A stretch of DNA of 64,000 nucleotides from an uncultured Candidatus Saccharibacteria bacterium (GCA_964648765.1 CAZYLF010000003.1:41676-105675); one strand, 5' to 3'; shown: positions 15,123-63,847, numbered from the stretch's first letter. Numbers and translations are program-made. Notes: a model not told the origin generated them from the sequence alone.

Positions 15123-15244
15123 GACTATCCTCCTGTAAAAGTACTCTTTTCTCTCTACCTTTAAACTACATATTTATATAAAAAAGTCAATGAAAAAACG
15201 GCAGTGATCCTTGGATCATCTGCCGTTTGTGTTTGTGGTCTTCA

Positions 15245-28522: not shown

Positions 28523-28620
28523 TCCAAACCTCGCCTCCCTTATAAGAGCAACGGACTTTTGTCAAATACCAACACTACCCCAATACTACTAATAAATTGA
28601 AAAAAGTCAAAATTAAGAAT

Positions 28621-54645: not shown

Positions 54646-54888
54646 TTGACGATGAGTGCACGAGGAAGTTGGGTTGGGTGGGAATTTACTCCCAAGGGTC
54701 ATCTTTTATGTCCAAGGTGTGCAACAGCATACAGAAAGAGAATCAACAGTATTATGGAGGAAGCTGAGGCTGATGCCTTTCTTGCTAAGATGATTCCGGT
54801 GGACCCAAACAAGCACATGCGATATGAAGATCACAAATGTTACGCGGGTAAATGTCCTAATCAACTCTCAATTTTGTCTGCGGCATAA
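54646..54888 (+). CDS. Hypothetical small zinc-ribbon-like protein
   Basis: CPRC...HKCYAGKC cysteine pairs. Followed by a terminator. Confidence 0.25.
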   Translation: MTMSARGSWVGWEFTPKGHLLCPRCATAYRKRINSIMEEAEADAFLAKMIPVDPNKHMRYEDHKCYAGKCPNQLSILSAA

Positions 54889-54942: not shown

Positions 54943-55485
54943 TTATTCTTTAAGTTTTTTAACTCCTAGCCAAATCAAAACAGCCAGAGCCAACGCAAGT
55001 AAAATTACTTGCAGATAATCCTGCATCTCAGACCAATAACGCATTGAGCCGATGATAAATGAGAGCACTCCACCAAGCGAGAGACCGTAAGATACCGCCT
55101 GAGCGGTAATCCAAAAGCCAATAACGATAGAAGCCAACCCAAGAATAATTAAGACAATAAAGACGTTACGATTGTATGGTGCCTGCGCGTCCTCATAATC
55201 TTGTCTGCAAGTAAATATAGGGTCGCAATAACCAGTTTGAACTTGGGTCGGAATTGGTCGGGCAATATCCACACCAGGAGTAAGCGGCGGAGTTTCTGTC
55301 CATGATCCACCAGTGGCCACGCACTCCTTTTCATTCATTAATTTATTAACTTGTTGCTCAGGGCAAAAGTCATTCCACTCTGGTGATGGATAAAAAAGAT
55401 GGATTGAATAATTAAAAAATAAATTAAGCACCACCAAAATCGCAATTGTTAATATCCACTTTAAAAACTTAGGTGAATTGTTCAT
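54943..55485 (-). CDS. Hypothetical membrane protein
   Basis: 180 aa with three hydrophobic helices. Confidence 0.3.
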   Translation of the reverse strand: MNNSPKFLKWILTIAILVVLNLFFNYSIHLFYPSPEWNDFCPEQQVNKLMNEKECVATGGSWTETPPLTPGVDIARPIPTQVQTGYCDPIFTCRQDYEDAQAPYNRNVFIVLIILGLASIVIGFWITAQAVSYGLSLGGVLSFIIGSMRYWSEMQDYLQVILLALALAVLIWLGVKKLKE

Positions 55486-55579
55486 GTTGGACCTATTATA
55501 TCATAATGCATGATTTGTTTGACGAATTTGATCGTAAGTAGTAATTTATCATCAGTGTTCTTTTAAGAGGAGGAAACTG

Positions 55580-56125
55580 ATGGCAAACAACATAGATCGT
55601 TTTTGCACGTTACTTGAACAAGGTAAGATAAACAGAAATTTGCTCAACTCATGGGGTAGAAGTGGGTACAGCAATCCGTTACACGTCATTGAGCGTGTCG
55701 CAACAAAACAAAACAATCGTGAGTTTATCATGATCACAGTTTTTATCATGACTGTTGTTTTGTTCATTATTGAATCGTCTTCAGGCGACAAACCAAAATT
55801 AGATTTTTACCTTTTGTCATTTTGCCTCATGCTTTTTTTAGCAATGTTTAATTGGTGTGACCGCTACTATGCCTCGTGGCAAGCAAAAAACTTTCTTCAG
55901 GCTATTGAACGTCTTGAAAAAATTTTGGAGTTGCCCAATGGAGCTTGCACGGGTGATTATGGAATTGCCGAGCTCAAAACACTTGCTGAGAATATATATC
56001 ACCGCAAATGCCAGGAGGTGGATGAAGGTAAATGCGATGAAAGTGAAGCAAAAAATGTGATCAGCTATTTACGTGGATTTAAGCTGATCCAATTGGAAGA
56101 AGAGCAAACACCAGAATTGGCATAG
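55580..56125 (+). CDS. Small 2-TM membrane protein, member 1 of tandem paralogue family
   Basis: Strong RBS AAGAGGAGG. N-terminal ~50-aa conserved module (..GKINRNLLNSW....NP..), then two TM helices, then a divergent Cys-containing C-tail. Confidence 0.4.
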   Translation: MANNIDRFCTLLEQGKINRNLLNSWGRSGYSNPLHVIERVATKQNNREFIMITVFIMTVVLFIIESSSGDKPKLDFYLLSFCLMLFLAMFNWCDRYYASWQAKNFLQAIERLEKILELPNGACTGDYGIAELKTLAENIYHRKCQEVDEGKCDESEAKNVISYLRGFKLIQLEEEQTPELA

Positions 56126-56136
56126 AAAATCTCCCC

Positions 56137-56196
56137 GCGCGGTGGCACACCCATCGCGCTTTTTTTGTTTGACAAAGTAAAATTTAGGTGTAGTTT
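56137..56196 (+). promoter_or_regulatory. Terminator-promoter cassette copy 1: hairpin GCGCGGTGG...CCATCGCGC + T-run, then TTGACA-N16-TAGTTT
   Basis: GC-rich 9-bp stem with one G.U wobble, T7 run, -35 TTGACA at 56169-56174 and -10-like TAGTTT at 56191-56196. Confidence 0.55.
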
Positions 56197-56252
56197 AAAA
56201 ATTAGATTGATTGTTGTTAGTCCAATCCGCTTTGAGCGGGAAAGGAAAGATT

Positions 56253-57020
56253 ATGTCACTTGGTCTTTTAAAGAAAAGTCGAGATGTTTATGGGCTTCCT
56301 TATTGTCTACTTTGGTTTTGGGTTGAACGCAAAAAGATTACACAGGAAAGTGGTGGGAACTTTTTAGCAAAGACAGAAAAGAAGTTGGTGAGGTCGTACC
56401 TGCTGATGGCGGTTGGAGGCGCCGTTTTCGCACTTTCAATTACCACACTCTTTCTCCTGGGTGGACCAAAAGTGGTGGATCAACAGTCCTTACCAGTAGG
56501 ATGGGTAAATTTTTTAGCCATGCTCCTGGGTGGAAGTAGTCTGGTTGTTGGCTTTATCGTGTTTTTCGATGTTTTGTTTAGCGGCGATGAGAGTGGTTTT
56601 CAAACAGACCTAGATAGGTTTATGGAATTTACCAGGACAGGCATCATAATGTTATCCCAAATGGGTAATAACGAGCTACGAGAACTCGTCGAAAAAACCC
56701 TGAACGAATCGGCCTACCAAGTCAAAACTGAGGAAAGGTTGATGGATGCCTATTTGCGAGAGGATCCAGAATACCTGATCCATCGCCTCAAAAAGATCCA
56801 ACTCCAAGACAAATTTGCCAGTGACTTTGTGTTCTTTGAGAGTCGGTTTGGTTTAATCAAGGGTGATCCAATTAAATTCCTAGCCGACAATAATCTCGGT
56901 AAGGGAATTAGCGTGACGGCAAAACCGGTGGACCCGCCACCTAAGACGATGAGTGCAGTCACCGGTGACGAAAAAGACGACCGAAAGATCAGGAGCCTAA
57001 TAGAAAGAGCTGATGAATAA
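56253..57020 (+). CDS. 2-TM membrane protein, paralogue family member 2
   Basis: Start at the ATG with an AAAGGAAAG RBS (56253). Two TM helices, then a ~150-aa soluble C-terminal domain. Confidence 0.4.
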   Translation: MSLGLLKKSRDVYGLPYCLLWFWVERKKITQESGGNFLAKTEKKLVRSYLLMAVGGAVFALSITTLFLLGGPKVVDQQSLPVGWVNFLAMLLGGSSLVVGFIVFFDVLFSGDESGFQTDLDRFMEFTRTGIIMLSQMGNNELRELVEKTLNESAYQVKTEERLMDAYLREDPEYLIHRLKKIQLQDKFASDFVFFESRFGLIKGDPIKFLADNNLGKGISVTAKPVDPPPKTMSAVTGDEKDDRKIRSLIERADE

Positions 57021-57042
57021 AACACAATAATGAGTAGTCCTC

Positions 57043-57103
57043 GCGCGGTGGTTCATACCCACCGCGCTTTTTTGTTTGACAAAAATTAAAAGAGTAGTAG
57101 TTT
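57043..57103 (+). promoter_or_regulatory. Terminator-promoter cassette copy 2
   Basis: GCGCGGTGG-ttcatac-CCACCGCGC + T-run, -35 TTGACA 57076-57081, -10-like TAGTTT 57098-57103 (N16). Confidence 0.55.
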
Positions 57104-57245
57104 AAATAACAGATCATAACTCAACGTAAGCTTGGCGTTGGGAAGAATGAAGTGTTTGGACTCTGGCCTGAAACCAGACCCAAACGGGACCTGAAATCCC
57201 CATTCTTAAAGTACAAGCATCTCCCGCAGGGAGAGAGGAGACGTT

Positions 57246-57968
57246 ATGTCATTAGATCTTTGTAAGATGGAGAAGAAAAGTTGGCAGATGCCACACATCC
57301 TACTTTGGATGTGGCTAGGGTATGGATTTGGAAAAAGAAAAGACCCCCTTAAAAAAATGAGGGAGAATTTCCAAATTGCTATTGCCGCATGTGGGCTGGG
57401 CGCAGGAATCCTTATCACGATGGTAGTGGTCTCAATTTCCGTTAAAACCAGTTCACCCCCAGTGATACCTAATCTGTATAATACGATTATGTTCATCGCC
57501 TTCATTGGATGCGCTCTTATTGCTGGAATATTCATAACTAAAAGCAGTACAGATAGTACGGGATTCTCAGATGCTCTGGAAAGATTCGCAAAAGAGGTTG
57601 CGAAGACTCCCGAATCACTTGCCGAAATGAGTAAGGCTGAGTTGTATAAGTTGGCAGAGTCTGTAATTTTTCTCAAAGCATGGAACATTAAAAGGACCGA
57701 GACTGAAATGGCAAAGTACCAAGAAGGTTCACATCAACGTAATGCGTTGCAGAACGAAAAGGAAGCACTTAAAGTAGAGCTAAGGGGAAAGGAAAGCTTC
57801 TTTGCTTTACAGTTTGGTTTGCACTTTGGATCACACGATCGATTCTTTAATGAGAATCCCCTTGCCTCAAACACGGCTCCCCTAACCCCAGAAGCGGCGG
57901 CGGCGTTTGCTAAAGCAGAAGCCGAATTGCAAACAACGCCAATTACGTCACAAGATAGTCTTGATTAG
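57246..57968 (+). CDS. 2-TM membrane protein with C-terminal coiled-coil/Ala-rich tail, paralogue family member 3
   Basis: GAGAGGAG RBS. HILLWMWLGYGFGKRKDPLKK then two TM helices, and a C-terminal EMAKYQEGSHQRNALQNEKEALKVEL. Confidence 0.4.
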   Translation: MSLDLCKMEKKSWQMPHILLWMWLGYGFGKRKDPLKKMRENFQIAIAACGLGAGILITMVVVSISVKTSSPPVIPNLYNTIMFIAFIGCALIAGIFITKSSTDSTGFSDALERFAKEVAKTPESLAEMSKAELYKLAESVIFLKAWNIKRTETEMAKYQEGSHQRNALQNEKEALKVELRGKESFFALQFGLHFGSHDRFFNENPLASNTAPLTPEAAAAFAKAEAELQTTPITSQDSLD

Positions 57969-57974
57969 TCACAG

Positions 57975-58014
57975 CCCGGCAGATTTCTTACGAAATCTGC
58001 CGGTTTTTTTATTT
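57975..58014 (+). terminator. Rho-independent terminator
   Basis: CCCGGCAGATTTC-ttac-GAAATCTGCCGG then T11. Confidence 0.6.
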
Positions 58015-58125
58015 ATTAAATCATGACTGGACAAAAACTAGTTTATTTGTTATAAACAAAAGCAGAGCTTAGGCACAAGCCGAGGCAAATTGGTCTCCAA
58101 ATCAACATTAAGAAAGGACATAAAC

Positions 58126-58569
58126 TTGAATTACGCTAAAAGAATCGTAAGGGCGTTTGATGACGGCAAAATTGATCAGCGGTTACTTGATTTATGGGCT
58201 AAAAACACAGGTGGAGCAAACCCTGTGGCAAGAGCCAAGCATTATCTTAAGGTCAGACGCATCGCCTGGGTAACCATCTCTTTGAATGCCATTGGCATGT
58301 TCGTAACTTTAGGTTGGCCATTCAGTAATCAAGGTGACTGGATGAAAGCAGTATCGATTACTTCAGTCGTCACCTGTTTGCTAACGCTGATGACCGTTCC
58401 ATTTCTTGGCTACCGGTCACCCAGTGTAAAAACCCTCCACATATTTATTTATGGCGATGATCATCATCCACCAAGTGAATGGTTGAGGGCGCTTGATGAA
58501 CTTCAAGCAGAGCGTGCTCGATTTAATGAATTCCAACGAAACAATTGGAAAGGAGCAAAAAGTGGATAA
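58126..58569 (+). CDS. 2-TM membrane protein, paralogue family member 4
   Basis: Probable TTG start at 58126 with AAGAAAGGA RBS (ORF track starts at TTG 58090). N-terminal NYAKRIVRAFDDGKIDQRLLDLWAKNTGGANP, then two TM helices. Confidence 0.4.
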   Translation: MNYAKRIVRAFDDGKIDQRLLDLWAKNTGGANPVARAKHYLKVRRIAWVTISLNAIGMFVTLGWPFSNQGDWMKAVSITSVVTCLLTLMTVPFLGYRSPSVKTLHIFIYGDDHHPPSEWLRALDELQAERARFNEFQRNNWKGAKSG

Positions 58570-59059
58570 CGCGAAACAGATTGTTAAGGCTTGGGACAAT
58601 GGAGAGATCCATTATTTCATCCCTGAAGCTTGGGCAAAAGCAACAGGAAAAACTGACCCAATCGCCCTAGCAAGATTCATGATCTCAACTCGGTGTTGGA
58701 TGTGGCCAACGGCAATAATCAGCATATTGGCAATTTTTACCTTTGTTGGTTGGCCGTTTGATAGTGATGGGACATTCTTTAAGGCCGGGCCTATTACCCT
58801 ATTTTCGGCCTATCTTATCCTCGGCATGATTGCCTTGCCTATCATGGGCTACACAGCGCTTGATGACTTTATCGATTTACTTGAAAAGTCTAAGCATAGT
58901 GAGGAAATGCAAAGGCTACTGGCAGAAATCACACGCACAAAAGCAGTCTACGAGCGAGAACTGAGCAAATCGCGTCACAAGCGGAGATTGAGTAAGTCTA
59001 GAATTCGCCGACGTCCGCGCCGCAAGCGTCGGGTCCGTTCAAAAATGTCGAGGTCTTAA
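58562..59059 (+). CDS. 2-TM membrane protein with highly basic C-tail, paralogue family member 5
   Basis: Probable GTG start at 58562 with AAAGGAG RBS. N-terminal DNAKQIVKAWDNGEIHYFIPEAWAKATGKTDP is paralogous to member 4. Tail RHKRRLSKSRIRRRPRRKRRVRS. Confidence 0.4.
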   Translation: MDNAKQIVKAWDNGEIHYFIPEAWAKATGKTDPIALARFMISTRCWMWPTAIISILAIFTFVGWPFDSDGTFFKAGPITLFSAYLILGMIALPIMGYTALDDFIDLLEKSKHSEEMQRLLAEITRTKAVYERELSKSRHKRRLSKSRIRRRPRRKRRVRSKMSRS

Positions 59060-59070
59060 TATTTCTCCCC

Positions 59071-59130
59071 GCGCGATGGCTTACCCCATCGCGCTTTTTT
59101 ATTTGACTAAATAATATATGATGGTAGTTT
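59071..59130 (+). promoter_or_regulatory. Terminator-promoter cassette copy 3 (stem variant GCGCGATGG/CCATCGCGC)
   Basis: Compensatory change in both stem arms relative to copies 2 and 5. T-run, -35 TTGACT 59103-59108, -10-like TAGTTT 59125-59130. Confidence 0.55.
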
Positions 59131-59180
59131 GTTTACTGGGGATAATGATCTTCGTAAGTCAAAAACTGAAAGGAACAAAA

Positions 59181-59774
59181 ATGAAAATTGTAGACCAGAT
59201 CCGTGACCTAGCGAACAAAAAGAAAGTTAATCAATCTCTAGTCACGCAGTGGATACAAAACAACAAAGCCCCTAACCCCAACCCATTTTTAGTCCTGGAA
59301 GACTATAGAAACGGGATAAGACTTGCTTGGATATTAATGTGTGCGGCACTTTTGGGACTAGGGATTATGCTGCATAGTATGTACATCTTGAACGCTAAAC
59401 CAGAAATGTGGGTTTTTGTTGTTTTAGCAATAATGACAATACTTCCACTACTAAGTCTGGGACTAACTTACACAGCCTTGAGATTATTTCTTCCTTATCT
59501 TGAAAAATTTGTGAAGGATGTTGAGATTCTTGATACAATTTTGGTTCTACCAAACGGCACAAGTGATTTAACTTTTGAAGAAATTCAGGAAAGAGCTGCA
59601 CCGATTTTGAGAGAACTAAAACTAGGAATCAAAGAAGAGTTCGCCTCCCTGGATAGCTCCTTGATGCACTTTAAAGGATTTGGCACTTTGGATATCCTTC
59701 GCTGTTTTCATGCCTTTGGTTTGTATAAGATTGGAGAAGAACCGGTAATCTTGTACGGGATAAGGGAGAAATAG
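59181..59774 (+). CDS. 2-TM membrane protein, paralogue family member 6
   Basis: Start at the ATG with an AAAGGAAC RBS (59181), downstream of the cassette -10. N-terminal KIVDQIRDLANKKKVNQSLVTQWIQNNKAPNPNP, then two TM helices. Confidence 0.4.
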   Translation: MKIVDQIRDLANKKKVNQSLVTQWIQNNKAPNPNPFLVLEDYRNGIRLAWILMCAALLGLGIMLHSMYILNAKPEMWVFVVLAIMTILPLLSLGLTYTALRLFLPYLEKFVKDVEILDTILVLPNGTSDLTFEEIQERAAPILRELKLGIKEEFASLDSSLMHFKGFGTLDILRCFHAFGLYKIGEEPVILYGIREK

Positions 59775-59787
59775 TGTACTTGCAATC

Positions 59788-59847
59788 GCGCGATGGCTTG
59801 CCCATCGCGCTTTTTTATTTGACTAATTATACTAATAGCAGTAGCTT
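59788..59847 (+). promoter_or_regulatory. Terminator-promoter cassette copy 4
   Basis: GCGCGATGG-cttgc-CCATCGCGC + T-run, -35 TTGACT 59819-59824, -10-like TAGCTT 59842-59847 (N17). Confidence 0.55.
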
Positions 59848-59905
59848 TCATTTAGAAATCGTTCACGTTTATGAAAACAAAGCATGTTCATTGAAAGGAG
59901 CAATC

Positions 59906-60412
59906 ATGCAAATTGAGAATCTGGATGACTTTCACGAATCTACCCTCCAAATAATTGGGCAGCAGATGAATAGTTTCAGCACAGCGCAAATTTTGCGAAC
60001 CATTTGTTTGTTAGTGGGCGATCAGTTACCTCCCCACCTGCAGAAAAGAAAAGACAACTTGGCCAAAATTGTAAGCAAAGTAGTTGGACGAATTGATCTT
60101 TCAACTCACCCATCTGTTGAAATTGCCACCTTCTTAAGAGAACGAGGCGCCAGCGCAAGGTCTCTCAGAATCGCCCTTGAAGAAATCGGAGAAGTTGACC
60201 AACCAGAACCAGCTATTTTGGAAAGGATAGTCTCCTACGCTCGAGAAGAAACTCTGGATGCGAATGATCTCTTGGTGATGCCACATCACCTAGTAATTGG
60301 CATTCTTAGGTGTGAGAATTCACTCGGAGCAAGGTCCTTGACCCATCTTGGTGTTCCACTTGAAGAAACAGCAAAAGAAATCAGACAAGCTTTTGCAAAA
60401 TCTGAAGACTGA
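59906..60412 (+). CDS. Stand-alone Clp N-terminal (Clp_N) double-repeat domain protein
   Basis: Start at the ATG with AAAGGAG RBS (59906). Two Clp_N-like repeats: STAQILRTICLLVGDQLPPHL and HHLVIGILRCENSLGARSLTHLGVPLEETAKEIRQAF. No AAA+ module. Confidence 0.5.
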   Translation: MQIENLDDFHESTLQIIGQQMNSFSTAQILRTICLLVGDQLPPHLQKRKDNLAKIVSKVVGRIDLSTHPSVEIATFLRERGASARSLRIALEEIGEVDQPEPAILERIVSYAREETLDANDLLVMPHHLVIGILRCENSLGARSLTHLGVPLEETAKEIRQAFAKSED

Positions 60413-60422
60413 TTAGTTTACC

Positions 60423-60455
60423 GCGCGGTGGTTCATACCCACCGCGCTTTTTTTG
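60423..60455 (+). terminator. Cassette-type terminator hairpin copy 5 (no promoter half)
   Basis: GCGCGGTGG-ttcatac-CCACCGCGC + T8. Not followed by TTGACA. Confidence 0.55.
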
Positions 60456-60517
60456 TATTAAAAACAGAAAACCCACCATCTCGCGACAGGGGTTTCCTGT
60501 TTTGAGATGGTGGGTTG

Positions 60518-60715
60518 CTACTTGTTTTCGAGATCAGTGAGAATTTCGACAATCTTACTGTTGTGCTCATCAGCGCCACAGGTGCAGTCGCCTGCCATGT
60601 GTGGGTCGTTAACGGGACAATGATCTGGGTGGCTTCTTTTAAGACCCTCAAGTCTCATCTTGGTTCTGGCGATCTTTTCAATTAGTTCCCACTCTAACAA
60701 ACTTGGTCTACCCAT
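60518..60715 (-). CDS. Hypothetical small Cys/His-containing protein
   Basis: 65-aa ORF with HPDHCP...CTCGADEH. Confidence 0.2.
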   Translation of the reverse strand: MGRPSLLEWELIEKIARTKMRLEGLKRSHPDHCPVNDPHMAGDCTCGADEHNSKIVEILTDLENK

Positions 60716-60780: not shown

Positions 60781-61734
60781 CTAAATCTTAAACTCGATCA
60801 CGTCACCATCCTTCACAATATATTCTTTGCCTTCAGTGCGTTTGAGACCGCCTTTGAGTAGGCTCTCCCAATTCACAATATCAGCTTTAATAAATTTATC
60901 TTTAAAGTCCGTGTGGATCGCCGTGCCGGCTTCGGGTGCGGTGCTGCCAGCGCGGATCGTCCAGGCACGAGTCTCATCTTCACCAGTGGTGAAGTAAGTT
61001 ATAAGCCCAAGCAAGTGATATGCTGCGCGAATGAGATCATCGAGACCAGTTTCAAAAACGGAGTCTACCTGCACTACTTCACGCCCCTTGAAAGCATTTT
61101 TAATTTCATCAACTTTATTTTCATTAGCTTCAGAACTATTGAGCACATAGAGAATCGGTTTGGCGGTGAGCAAACATAAATGCTTCGGTGCGTCAGCCCC
61201 GGCCAACTCCCCTTTCTCAAGTTTAGCCTTAAGCTCCGTTAAAATTTTATCTTCTGCCACCGCCTCTTTATCTCCCCGCTTCAACTCTTTGCCAATGTTG
61301 CTCTGGCGCTTGTTCACCGTCTCAAGATCGGCGAGCACTAATTCATATTCAATCGTCTTCACATCATCGAGTGGTGAGACTTTGTTGGCCACATGGATCA
61401 CATCTTTATCTTCAAAAACTCGCACCACCTGAGCAATCGCATCCACCTCGCGGATGTGGGAGAGAAATTTATTCCCCAGACCTTCACCCGACGCCGCACC
61501 GGCCACTAAGCCAGCGATGTCTACGAATTCAATTGCCGCCGGAATAGTCTTGGCCGATTTACTAAATTCACTCAACTTCGCCAAGCGATCATCTGGCACC
61601 GCCACCACGCCCACCGATGGATCGATGGTGCAAAATGGATAATTCTCCGCTGGCACGCCCTTCTTAGTAAGCGCGTTAAACAACGTCGACTTGCCAACGT
61701 TTGGTAGCCCCACAATGCCGATGGATAGAGACAT
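60781..61734 (-). CDS. ychF: Ribosome-binding ATPase YchF (Obg-family GTPase fold), short form
   Basis: IGIVGLPNVGKSTLFNALT, NYPFCTIDP, LLTAKPILYVLN, and a C-terminal TGS-like domain. Confidence 0.85.
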   Translation of the reverse strand: MSLSIGIVGLPNVGKSTLFNALTKKGVPAENYPFCTIDPSVGVVAVPDDRLAKLSEFSKSAKTIPAAIEFVDIAGLVAGAASGEGLGNKFLSHIREVDAIAQVVRVFEDKDVIHVANKVSPLDDVKTIEYELVLADLETVNKRQSNIGKELKRGDKEAVAEDKILTELKAKLEKGELAGADAPKHLCLLTAKPILYVLNSSEANENKVDEIKNAFKGREVVQVDSVFETGLDDLIRAAYHLLGLITYFTTGEDETRAWTIRAGSTAPEAGTAIHTDFKDKFIKADIVNWESLLKGGLKRTEGKEYIVKDGDVIEFKI

Positions 61735-61792: not shown

Positions 61793-63847
61793 TTAAGCCC
61801 TCGGTTTTAAATGGCTGATATGCCTAGATAAAATCTCTTGAATAGCAGCAGGAAAGTCTTCAACACTTTGCGGGATGATGCTATCTTCGCCAAAATGATA
61901 CTTGACCTTGGCTGGAATATCACCTTCTGAGGTAATAGCCGTACCCTCAAAAGGTGTAACGTTTCTGGCTTCTTCAGCAGCGGCTTTAGTATCAGGGCTC
62001 TCTGTTGTGCTGTCTGAAACAAAAACCATTAATGTCCCTAATCTGTCGCTGACGCCGCGAAATTGCTGAGAGGCTCGGTGTAATCGAGGCACAGCTGCTT
62101 GAATTGCTCGAGCATCTTCATTGCCCTTATTGCCAAAAGGTCCGGCTGGGTCAACCATTGATACCAGTTTGGTTTTAATTTTTACCGAGTAATCGTCTTT
62201 TGCTGACTTAATAAGATACTTTTCTCCCAGGTCTTGATCACCGACATTTCCCTCATCGCTCGCGAGTATCTCAATGTGAATATTAAATCCCAAAGCGGCC
62301 TCACAAACCGCGACACAAGCTTTAACTGCATTTTTTATCCGTTCAGCCTCTTGATACATCGAACCGGAGACATCAACTAAGAGTTGCAGAACCAAAGCAT
62401 TTTTTTCTGGAGTCTGCCTTCGCCCCATTGGATTCTCATACCCAGTTCCAAATCTCCTAACCAGCCGCCGGACGTCAAACCGAATACCCTTTTTGCCCCA
62501 ATCATACTGCGGCTCATCAACTTTTGGCAAAAATCTTTCGAAGACACGCTTCAGTTGATGAATCACCGGCTGAACCTCATCTTTTAATTCACTGTATGCT
62601 TCACGTAATTTAGGATCCTCAAAACCATCCTTAGTTTGCAACAAGTCATTCTTTGCTTGCTCGAGCGACTTCTGATCTTTGTCTTTACTTTCAGAATTCT
62701 GTTTGGCTTTTTCTGATTTCTGTTGGAGTCTTTTCTCGTGTTTATCAACAATATTTTTGAAAATTTTCTGCATCTCTGGCGGCCAAGAAGAAGGATCACT
62801 CGGGTCAAAATTGCCGTCTGACTCTGGTGGCTTTTCACCCTTTGACGATTTACCCTTTTTTAATTTTTTATCAGGCTTCGACTTCCCTTCTTTCCCCTCA
62901 CCATCATCACCATCGCCCTCTCCTTCCTCAGATTCACCCGCCTCTTCCGGAAATTCATCAATGAGCTTTTTAAACGACGGCCAAATAACATCAACGATCT
63001 CCCTCTCAACCTCTGCCCCAACTTTCATACAGGGCCGGACCGCATCACCGGTAATCTTTTTCAAGCTCGCTTCAACCTTCAAAAACTCCTCTTTTACTCG
63101 GGGATCTAAGTCATCCAAACTCCACGGTTTTTGCTCTCCCGCTAAATCTTTTTCATGTAAACGCCACAGCGATTCGAGTTTTAAAATAAATTTAAACTGC
63201 TCGGGTGGCGTCATTTTTGGTTTACCCTCCGACCCCTTTATACCCTCCGCGATATTAGGGATTATCAATAACCGATTTTTTTCAAAGAGCTGCTGGCGAG
63301 CATTTTCATGCATTGGCCCACCCACCAGTCTCTCCATTCTTGGATCCTCGATGCAATTGTCTAAACTAGTAAGTTCAGACGGGTCATAGCCTTCTTGGCG
63401 AGCCAAAATTCGGAATCTTTCAATCCGGCCAAAATCTGTCCATTTGGCGTGGCCTTGCTCATGGGCGATCTCTCCGCGCAAAAACTGTTGTGGTGCCTTA
63501 CCAGCCACATAAACATAGGGCAGGCCTATAAGATAGGTTTTCTTTTGCGGGTCATCAACAATTTCTCCCGTTTCAGTTACTGTTTTGGCCGGTACTTGTC
63601 CGCAACAAAACGTGTCGAGAGTTGGGTCGGTATACACCTCGATTACCCTGTCTGGCGTTTGAGAAAACTTTTCCAGATCGCTCAAAATCTGATCAACTTC
63701 TTCCGGCGATGCCGTCTTCATCCGTTCTTGACACCCCGCAATAAAAGCATTGGGATCACCAAGCAAAGTCTCTTCTTTGAGAACTTCTTGGATTTCTCCT
63801 GTTTGCATATTTTCAGGTGTTTTCATCATAATCTCTAGATAATACAA
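61793..63847 (-). CDS. VWA-domain protein with N-terminal HExxH putative metallopeptidase domain (DUF2201-like architecture)
   Basis: HEQGHAKWTDFG (HExxH) at aa ~125. Central Glu/Lys/Asp-rich linker. C-terminal VWA with MIDAS motif LLVDVSGSM and downstream VFVSDSTTES. Confidence 0.6.
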   Translation of the reverse strand: MYYLEIMMKTPENMQTGEIQEVLKEETLLGDPNAFIAGCQERMKTASPEEVDQILSDLEKFSQTPDRVIEVYTDPTLDTFCCGQVPAKTVTETGEIVDDPQKKTYLIGLPYVYVAGKAPQQFLRGEIAHEQGHAKWTDFGRIERFRILARQEGYDPSELTSLDNCIEDPRMERLVGGPMHENARQQLFEKNRLLIIPNIAEGIKGSEGKPKMTPPEQFKFILKLESLWRLHEKDLAGEQKPWSLDDLDPRVKEEFLKVEASLKKITGDAVRPCMKVGAEVEREIVDVIWPSFKKLIDEFPEEAGESEEGEGDGDDGEGKEGKSKPDKKLKKGKSSKGEKPPESDGNFDPSDPSSWPPEMQKIFKNIVDKHEKRLQQKSEKAKQNSESKDKDQKSLEQAKNDLLQTKDGFEDPKLREAYSELKDEVQPVIHQLKRVFERFLPKVDEPQYDWGKKGIRFDVRRLVRRFGTGYENPMGRRQTPEKNALVLQLLVDVSGSMYQEAERIKNAVKACVAVCEAALGFNIHIEILASDEGNVGDQDLGEKYLIKSAKDDYSVKIKTKLVSMVDPAGPFGNKGNEDARAIQAAVPRLHRASQQFRGVSDRLGTLMVFVSDSTTESPDTKAAAEEARNVTPFEGTAITSEGDIPAKVKYHFGEDSIIPQSVEDFPAAIQEILSRHISHLKPRA

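Follow-up and report, generated by a model that had tools for sequence, protein, structure and literature searches.

A tandem array of orphan two-transmembrane proteins with a recurring hairpin cassette in an uncultured Candidatus Saccharibacteria bacterium

Lineage-specific tandem expansions of paralogous small membrane proteins are a general phenomenon in reduced and uncultured bacterial genomes. Among described proteins with two transmembrane (TM) helices, class II holins combine the two helices with a very basic C-terminal tail. Here, we analyzed an array of seven consecutive plus-strand genes, G1 to G7, at positions 55580-60412 of a 64,000-nucleotide stretch of DNA (the window) from an uncultured Candidatus Saccharibacteria bacterium (GCA_964648765.1, CAZYLF010000003.1:41676-105675). 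The closest relatives of this uncultured host come from groundwater filtrates. Like the known tandem expansions, the array consists of same-strand neighbors with a common architecture and rapid divergence, has a narrow clade distribution and native composition, and has single-copy relatives. We consider it reasonably probable that the locus arose by lineage-specific tandem expansion, in situ, of an orphan family of small membrane proteins. A Shine-Dalgarno (SD) sequence precedes each gene, and the array is bounded by a divergent gene, G0 (54943-55485, minus strand), and by convergent ychF (60781-61734, minus strand). The array is not foreign DNA: its G+C content equals that of the sequence outside it, and the flanking genes (leuS, a sigma-factor-like gene, yceG, and ychF) are housekeeping genes.

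Three paralogue pairs and their relatives

The proteins encoded by G1 to G6 are built alike, with a net-positive N-terminus of ~45 amino acids (aa), two TM helices, and a C-terminal tail. Hydrophobic 19-residue segments begin at residues 44-50 (TM1) and 74-87 (TM2) in all six, with loops of 6-18 residues in between. Sequence similarity sorts the six into three paralogue pairs. G4 (58126-58569, TTG start, 147 aa) and G5 (58562-59059, GTG start, 165 aa), which form type A2, aligned at 68.9 bits and 36% identity across their first 97 residues; G5 ends in an Arg/Lys-rich C-terminal tail and G4 is without it. The type B pair, G2 (56253-57020, 255 aa) and G3 (57246-57968, 240 aa), aligned over 234 residues, which is their full length, at 25% identity and 53.5 bits. 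G1 (55580-56125, 181 aa, TM helices at 49-67 and 74-92) and G6 (59181-59774, 197 aa), both type A1, gave 28.5 bits over 175 residues, tail included, and an ILxLPNG motif is common to the two tails. G1 has six Cys residues in all, four of them in the tail.

The original prediction for this region described six tandem paralogues with a shared N-terminal module, two TM helices, and completely different tails, in other words, one conserved anchor with hypervariable ends. The pairwise similarities and the gene layout confirmed the tandem paralogue array, and hydrophobic helices at about residues 45-65 and 75-105 in all six proteins agreed with the two TM segments. The tails, however, are of three types that match the three pairs: G1 and G6 align through the tail, G2 and G3 align from end to end, and the tail of G4 resembles a truncated G5 type. 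Instead of one anchor with unrelated tails, the array therefore holds three paralogue pairs, each with its own tail type.

The N-terminal module also proved less widespread than proposed. Over the N-terminal ~60 residues, blastp gave 26.6 bits for G1 against G4 and 24.6 bits for G4 against G6. G4 and G5, together with the orthologs P0004 and P0008 (see below), went into a leave-out profile, whose scores we compared with those of 250 segment-shuffled decoys. G1 scored 12.1 bits, with 0/250 decoys as high (p<0.004), and G6 scored 8.7 bits, with 2/250 decoys as high (p about 0.01), whereas G2 and G3 gave no signal (about 148 of the 250 decoys did equally well). A profile-profile comparison (hhalign) of the A group with the B pair returned a probability of 0.2%, and G2 and G3 have an N-terminus of their own (MSLxLxK...P..LLWxW). 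Only G4/G5 thus carry the module clearly; G1/G6 show a faint but recognizable form of it, and G2/G3 do not have it. Motifs that seemed common to the G1/G6 and G2/G3 tails (F..FGL..G and s..EL..LAE) were dropped as unproven; an hhalign comparison of the C-terminal domains gave E 0.054.

Relatives outside the window were few. Word-indexed searches of 5.8 billion protein clusters with type A, type B, and G7 sequences returned only the window's own proteins and one other, P0004; with type B, only G2 and G3 themselves were found. When an A-type profile was run exhaustively with HMMER against 1.84 billion representatives, the matches were the four members from the window plus P0008 and P0009 only (E up to 0.001). 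The G1-G6 proteins are therefore orphans, with three relatives found in total. A literature search on 8xMP proteins and on tandem small membrane paralogues of the candidate phyla radiation yielded nothing relevant.

The three relatives all resemble the A2 pair. P0004, from GCA_021733325.1 (locus L003), is 63% identical to G4 and has a G5-like Arg-rich tail. P0008 (locus L123) is 61% identical to G5, and P0009 (L124, 429-788; L125, 157-516) is 34% identical to G5 and is without the N-terminal module. P0009 starts 6 residues before TM1 and keeps the GWPF loop and the Arg-rich tail, so the module is dispensable in that lineage. The source of P0008 and P0009 is groundwater from Hainich, in assemblies with 01um and 02um in their record names; the accessions for the L123 and L124 lineages are ERZ1292624, ERZ1292631, and ERZ1292636.

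Both L123 and L124 carry a single G5-type gene with a promoter and leader like those of G4, followed by a homologous hairpin and then directly by convergent ychF. Between the window and L124, YchF is 67% identical and the G5-type protein 34%. Judged from these identities, the G5-type gene evolves fast and yet holds its position beside ychF, which fits a vertically inherited lineage gene rather than a mobile defense gene. At L003, we considered whether the ORF (open reading frame) upstream of the P0004 gene could be a G3 ortholog, but BLASTP gave E 0.24, leaving only terminator and promoter synteny.

A repeated hairpin cassette and conserved leaders

The second feature of the array is a hairpin, GCGCGRTGG-N5-7-CCAYCGCGC plus a T-run, that occurs exactly five times in the window (at 56137, 57043, 59071, 59788, and 60423), always on the plus strand and starting 11-22 nt past the stop codons of G1, G2, G5, G6, and G7. 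The rest of the 64 kb has no further copy; the number expected by chance was 0, and shuffled sequence yielded none. Each hairpin has a 9-bp stem with 7-8 GC pairs, a 5- to 7-nt loop, and 6-7 T residues. Their predicted stabilities range from -16.3 to -18.9 kcal/mol (z -3.9 to -5.7), and a terminator scan detected all five. By these predictions, the five hairpins are canonical intrinsic terminators.

Four of the five hairpins run directly into a -35/-10 pair. The pattern TTGACW-N16/17-TAGYTT has five matches in the window against 0.11 expected, and 4/5 lie directly after array hairpins; in the four copies, the -35 is perfect or matches at 5/6 and the spacer is 16-17 nt. Copy c1 (56137-56196) consists of the hairpin at 56137-56159 (-16.3 kcal/mol, z -3.9), a T-run, TTGACA at 56169-56174, and TAGTTT at 56191-56196. 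Copy c2 (57043-57103) has its hairpin at 57043-57067 (-18.9 kcal/mol), followed by a T-run and TTGACA-N16-TAGTTT, and c3 (59071-59130) has a hairpin at 59071-59094 (-17.2 kcal/mol, z -5.7), followed by a T-run and TTGACT-N16-TAGTTT. In c4 (59788-59847), the hairpin at 59788-59810 (-16.9 kcal/mol) and its T-run are followed by TTGACT-N17-TAGCTT. The last copy, c5 (60423-60454), is a terminator only, with a hairpin identical to that of c2, T7, and no -35/-10; c2 and c5 share the stem, the loop, and the first six T of the T-run. These counts match the cassette as first described, present four times with a fifth, terminator-only copy and specific to the array within the window.

The -10 hexamer is of the TAG type. 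Other gene-proximal window sites of the form TTGAC-N17-19-TAnnnT with a -10 starting in TAG lie at 28583, 39496, and 60748, the last before ychF. Putative promoters combining TTGAC with a TAG-type -10 (TAGTTT, TAGTAT, or TAGGTT) were noted at 15163, 28583, 39496, and 60748 (minus). Because this type of -10 recurs at several putative promoters in the window, the -10 consensus of the organism may differ from TATAAT, and the cassette and the TAG-type sites are likely promoters. Upstream of the array, 33 nt before the start of G1, a pattern match at 55519-55547 (TTGACG-N17-TAATTT, plus strand) marks a putative G1 promoter. G3 is followed by a different predicted intrinsic terminator (57976-58010, plus strand) with a 12-bp stem, CCGGCAGATTTC/GAAATCTGCCGG, and T7; it is longer than the array hairpin and more stable (57976-58003, -21.1 kcal/mol, z -6.5), and L003 has a similar hairpin at the equivalent place. 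With an intrinsic terminator abutting a sigma-70-like -35/-10 in four copies, the array would therefore comprise six insulated transcription units: G1, G2, G3, G4-G5, G6, and G7.

To look for covariation, we aligned the five window hairpins with the homologous hairpins of the three related loci. Six of the nine stem pairs are invariant, and 97% of the cells are paired. The single variable pair is G-C in c2, c5, and L003, G-U in c1, A-U in c3 and c4, and U-A in L124. The compensatory change from GGTGG/CCACC to GATGG/CCATC that had been pointed out earlier is thus real, with c1 as a G-U intermediate and U-A at an orthologous locus. As it involves one position and probably two or three events, the covariation lends modest support to selection on pairing. 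A pyrimidine-rich stretch (TTTCTCCCC or similar) stands right before the hairpin in c1 (56127-56136), c3 (59061-59070), L003, L123, and L124, and on that account the conserved unit appears to reach ~9 nt upstream of the stem.

Conservation is much higher in the hairpins than in the proteins beside them. The hairpins are 76-92% identical over 45 nt, whereas the adjacent proteins are 20-36% identical or unrelated. An identical stem and loop is found behind G2, G7, and P0004, which are non-homologous; the copy after P0004 is fused to TTGACA-N16-TATATT. Slow decay after co-duplication cannot by itself explain this contrast, and we infer that gene conversion, copy-to-copy recombination, or sequence-specific constraint is needed. 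A scan of a genome collection with the hairpin pattern, which is too generic for this purpose, picked up, in unrelated phyla, at least 119 terminators that match by chance, and no cassette, and a metagenome scan with a T-run plus -35 pattern gave 46 matches, none with the hairpin and none encoding relatives.

G4 and G5 are the one junction that departs from this layout. The GTG start of G5 overlaps the stop of G4 by 8 nt (GTGGATAA), GGAAAGGAG lies within the 3' end of G4, and no cassette separates the genes, in keeping with the translational coupling proposed for them. The G5 start codon is supported by its ortholog P0008 (61% identity), which begins MDNARK. Comparison with the relatives suggests how the junction formed. 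The tails of P0004, P0008, and P0009 all start with RPNWRxGKxRIRRR, and P0004, the protein 63% identical to G4, has the tail RPNWRMGKKRIRRR..., whereas G4 ends in RNNWKGAKSG at the SD of G5. The window DNA from GGAAAGGAGC onward can be aligned to the L123 ortholog at its SD and start codon. Most likely, to judge from these alignments, one deletion removed the Arg-rich tail of G4, its terminator, and the promoter and leader of G5, up to the G5 ribosome-binding site; this would be why G4/G5 alone overlap and are cassette-free. The exact junction is ambiguous, as the 3' end of G4 is similar to the tail motif (CCAAATTGG) and also to the leader upstream of the SD.

The G4 promoter and leader (58028-58125, plus strand) are conserved as well. 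They comprise TGGACA at 58028-58033, N17, TATAAA at 58051-58056, a hairpin at 58067-58086, an invariant AAAUUG, and a UCUC stretch at 58094-58097. Across four loci (window 58028-58125, L003 227-324, L123 ~30-125, and L124 ~333-428), mean column identity is 82%, so that in L124, whose G5-type protein is 34% identical to G5 and 26% to G4, the leader is better conserved than the coding sequence. In the leader hairpin, RNAalifold showed a compensatory change at one pair and wobble switches at two, and it predicted a UCUC:GGAG helix involving the SD; by this model, the leader may be a translational control element. G3 has an unusually long, moderately structured leader of ~135 nt (57110-57245, plus strand; -41.8 kcal/mol, z -2.07); 7/200 shuffled sequences gave equally stable folds. 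Between c2 and the G3 start we noted a CUCCC-GCA-GGGAG hairpin overlapping the SD region. An Rfam search of 54.4-60.9 kb, the G3 and G4 leaders included, matched no family.

The last gene of the series, G7 (59906-60412, 168 aa), encodes a soluble protein without a TM helix. Residues 106-166 match ClpC N-domain structures (phmmer against PDB sequences, E 4e-6), and one Clp_N repeat at residues 118-161 scored 19.9 bits in Pfam against a cut-off of 20.7. The first half of the protein had no match, and the word-indexed search with G7 returned only itself. G7 lies within the cassette-bounded series; it is not a member of the two-TM families, and we saw no functional link to G1-G6. The public gene call for G7 (59774-60412, 212 aa) starts at GTG 59774 and reads through the c4 cassette. 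That start is probably mis-called; the ATG at 59906 has an SD sequence, GAAAGGAG.

Origin of the array and alternative explanations

L123 and L124 have a single G5-type gene with matching promoter, leader, hairpin, and ychF, and a single gene adjacent to ychF is therefore our inferred ancestral state. This gene would have been equipped with a promoter, a conserved leader with RNA structure, and a GC-rich terminator hairpin of its own. Duplication and partial deletion of complete transcription units may then have given the pairs G1/G6, G2/G3, and G4/G5 along with the unrelated soluble G7, and the site would have grown to about 5 kb in this genome. Gene conversion or recombination between hairpin copies could homogenize them, on top of selection for pairing, and further units could plausibly be gained or lost through the hairpin repeats.

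What the proteins do can be approached through their topology. All six N-termini have a surplus of Lys and Arg over Asp and Glu (+1 to +7), the inter-helix loops of 6-18 residues are near-neutral, and the G5-type tail has 24 Lys and Arg in 69 residues. With low confidence, we predict an N-in/C-in topology in which the diversified tails are cytoplasmic. Under our tentative model, the two-TM proteins would enter the membrane as helical hairpins, N- and C-terminus both cytoplasmic, and, again tentatively, may be membrane anchors that present exchangeable cytoplasmic modules: a short helical N-terminal module and a tail. The tail might be a helical domain of ~90-150 aa or a poly-Arg/Lys stretch of a kind that could bind nucleic acid, ribosomes, or acidic lipids; the Arg-rich tail is a candidate binder of these. 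AlphaFold2 models were all-helical and of low confidence for G6 (7-sequence alignment, predicted local distance difference test [pLDDT] score 61.6) and for G2 (2 sequences, pLDDT 53.4), and Foldseek searches of PDB with these models returned only noise (E above 0.5). PDB sequence and profile searches with the two-TM proteins found nothing.

The strongest alternative, which we nevertheless regard as unlikely, is a conflict locus, where two-TM pore-forming or membrane-disrupting effectors, their immunity proteins, or superinfection exclusion proteins would have diversified in an arms race, each expressed separately. The proteins are fast-evolving, lineage-restricted, and tandemly amplified, each unit has its own predicted promoter, and the two TM helices and very basic C-terminal tail of G5 recall a class II holin. 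Scans of Pfam, NCBIfam, PHROGs, and PADLOC with all eight local proteins gave nothing above threshold, and the sub-threshold matches included two-TM effector models: G1 matched Pfam 8xMP (PF24838; E 0.0018), G5 alone matched the PADLOC "2TM effector" PDLC00684 (E 0.006), and NCBIfam gave a type VI secretion system (T6SS) ExIF model (E 0.015) and SLATT (E 0.59; SLATT_1 at 10.1 bits against 41). Such matches are far below the curated cut-offs (18.6 bits against 30 for 8xMP), lie chiefly over the TM helices, and are not the same in the different paralogues. Next to the array there is no gene for a sensor, enzyme, toxin, lysin, or integrase and no gene of phage origin, PADLOC found no matches on the neighbor genes tested, and phage genomes and viral contigs contained no relatives of the array proteins. 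The G5-type gene, moreover, keeps its place beside ychF and its leader across species. The original prediction likened the array to variable surface, immunity, or phage-exclusion families. A variable-surface role is unlikely because both protein ends are predicted to be cytoplasmic, and the locus offered no defense, phage, or immunity signal to set against its housekeeping flanks and native G+C content.

A second alternative moves the activity from the proteins to the DNA. The 60-bp cassette itself could be a recombination or mobile module, similar to an integron attC site or to a repetitive extragenic palindrome (REP) or miniature inverted-repeat transposable element (MITE), that captures and shuffles unrelated genes such as G7 and the B-type pair. 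The identical or near-identical hairpins behind the non-homologous G2, G7, and P0004 would fit such a module, as would the single orientation of all genes and the confinement of the cassette to this locus within the window. How similar two cassettes are bears no relation to homology of the genes on either side, and the repeat-bounded pieces behave as separate units in assembly graphs. We nonetheless think this explanation quite improbable. The flanks examined contain no integrase, transposase, or REP-associated tyrosine transposase (RAYT) gene, the hairpins measure 23-25 nt without a GTTRRRY-type core, and hairpin and U-run are fully explained as a terminator. Single-gene relatives have the equivalent hairpin with nothing captured, the metagenome collection contained no cassette-like copy, and no special machinery is required for short direct repeats to undergo homologous recombination or gene conversion.

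Slightly less probable still, in our judgment, is a bolder combination of ideas, in which the hairpin-promoter module is a short recombinogenic cassette boundary, through which independently expressed genes, chiefly for cytoplasmic modules anchored in the membrane, are gained, lost, and reshuffled at one chromosomal site with no dedicated recombinase, and the orphan two-TM repertoire gives an ultra-small groundwater bacterium a new function in conflict or in host interaction. The identical c2/c5 repeats could, for instance, loop out G3-G7.

The array is very unlikely to be an artefact of mis-assembly across repeats or of non-coding ORFs: short-read assemblies break at c2 and c5, which have the same hairpin sequence, so that the order of pieces in the long contig relies on repeat resolution, but three independent Logan contigs from two runs are 100% identical to the window, the sole linear path that uses every piece once is the window order, and SD sequences at every ORF, the consistent two-TM architecture, and orthologs elsewhere speak for real genes. 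These contigs end exactly in the c2/c5 repeat and reproduce all genes and junctions except the repeat crossings. They confirm the genes and show that the repeats are long enough for recombination and assembly breakpoints.

Several points weigh against in situ tandem expansion of one membrane-protein family as we have described it. A single family for all six proteins is not shown, because G1/G6 are only weakly linked to G4/G5 and no sequence tie connects G2/G3 with the others; G2/G3 could be an independent recruit of convergent build. The relatives lie on contigs of 0.7-1.3 kb, where "single gene" is certain on the ychF side only. The -10 sequence TAGTTT matches TATAAT at 3/6 positions (T1, A2, and T6), and it did not pass a standard promoter scan. 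The 64 kb that we covered is part of a genome in which the cassette could occur elsewhere. The N-in/C-in topology is predicted solely from the positive-inside rule, no family, fold, or partner was identified, and the AlphaFold2 models are poor.

Several features of the surroundings deserve mention. G0 encodes a 180-aa membrane protein with an N-terminal anchor, three C-terminal hydrophobic helices, and a segment of ~80 aa with four Cys; it has no family match and is unrelated to G1-G6. Small Cys-rich ORFs with CxxC-type pairs lie on both sides of the array (54646-54888, plus strand; 60518-60715, minus strand), and another small Cys-rich ORF is found upstream of the single-gene locus in L124 (31-207). 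Pairwise similarity between the ORF at 54646-54888 and that of L124 was not significant (E 0.13). Just past c5, at 60470-60516, between G7 and the minus-strand 65-aa ORF, is a hairpin with 21-nt arms (18/21 complementary), likely the terminator of the convergent minus-strand unit. Farther downstream, a 684-aa protein (61793-63847, minus strand) has an acidic low-complexity center and an LVDVSGSM stretch reminiscent of the metal ion-dependent adhesion site (MIDAS) motif of von Willebrand factor A (vWA) domains; it had no Pfam match at E <= 0.01.

Comparison with known systems

Taken singly, the elements of the locus are ordinary in kind; the protein families are undescribed. In its 9-bp GC-rich stem, 6-7 U, TTGACA/T, 16- to 17-nt spacer, and TAnnnT, the cassette resembles a canonical intrinsic terminator followed by a sigma-70 promoter. 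It differs in that one sequence is reused five times in 4.3 kb and is conserved in the orthologous loci of other species, and in a -10 of TAGTTT in place of TATAAT, a variant also present at other putative promoters in the window.

The proteins can be set beside two groups. Like the two-TM effectors (SLATT, Pfam 8xMP, and those in PADLOC), they are small TM-hairpin proteins flanked by predicted cytoplasmic helices; unlike them, they show no significant similarity, have no linked nucleotide-signaling or sensor genes, and sit in a conserved housekeeping neighborhood. G5, P0004, P0008, and P0009 also resemble class II holins in their two TM helices, predicted N-in/C-in topology, and strongly basic C-terminal tail. 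These G5-type proteins are, however, two to three times longer, and most have the extra N-terminal module. No endolysin or phage genes adjoin the array, and its proteins matched no PHROG or Pfam holin.

The locus resembles integron arrays in having ORFs that point the same way, are in part unrelated, and alternate with copies of an imperfect palindrome. Integron attC sites measure 57-141 bp and contain R''/L''/L'/R' elements and a GTTRRRY core; the repeats here are perfect or nearly perfect hairpins of 23-25 nt plus a U-run. The palindromes of the locus are short terminators with U-runs, and the units have their own predicted promoters, whereas integron cassettes are mostly promoterless. No integrase, recombinase, or attI was present in the annotated flanks examined and no attC core in the hairpins, where the sequence downstream reads GTTTGAC and not GTTRRRY.

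No long-standing question is addressed by the locus. To the uncharacterized genes of reduced, uncultured bacteria it contributes two orphan protein families of defined architecture, one conserved predicted terminator, and one conserved structured leader. If our interpretation is true, it offers a small-scale example of a reduced uncultured bacterium building a private gene family by copying promoter-gene-terminator units, in which regulatory hairpins are kept or homogenized as the coding sequences diverge fast and two units become one operon through a deletion. It is here that the array would depart from plain tandem expansions of small membrane proteins: whole transcription units appear to have been copied, with hairpins 76-92% identical beside proteins of 20-36% or undetectable identity, and one unit boundary appears to have been deleted, leaving a two-gene operon.

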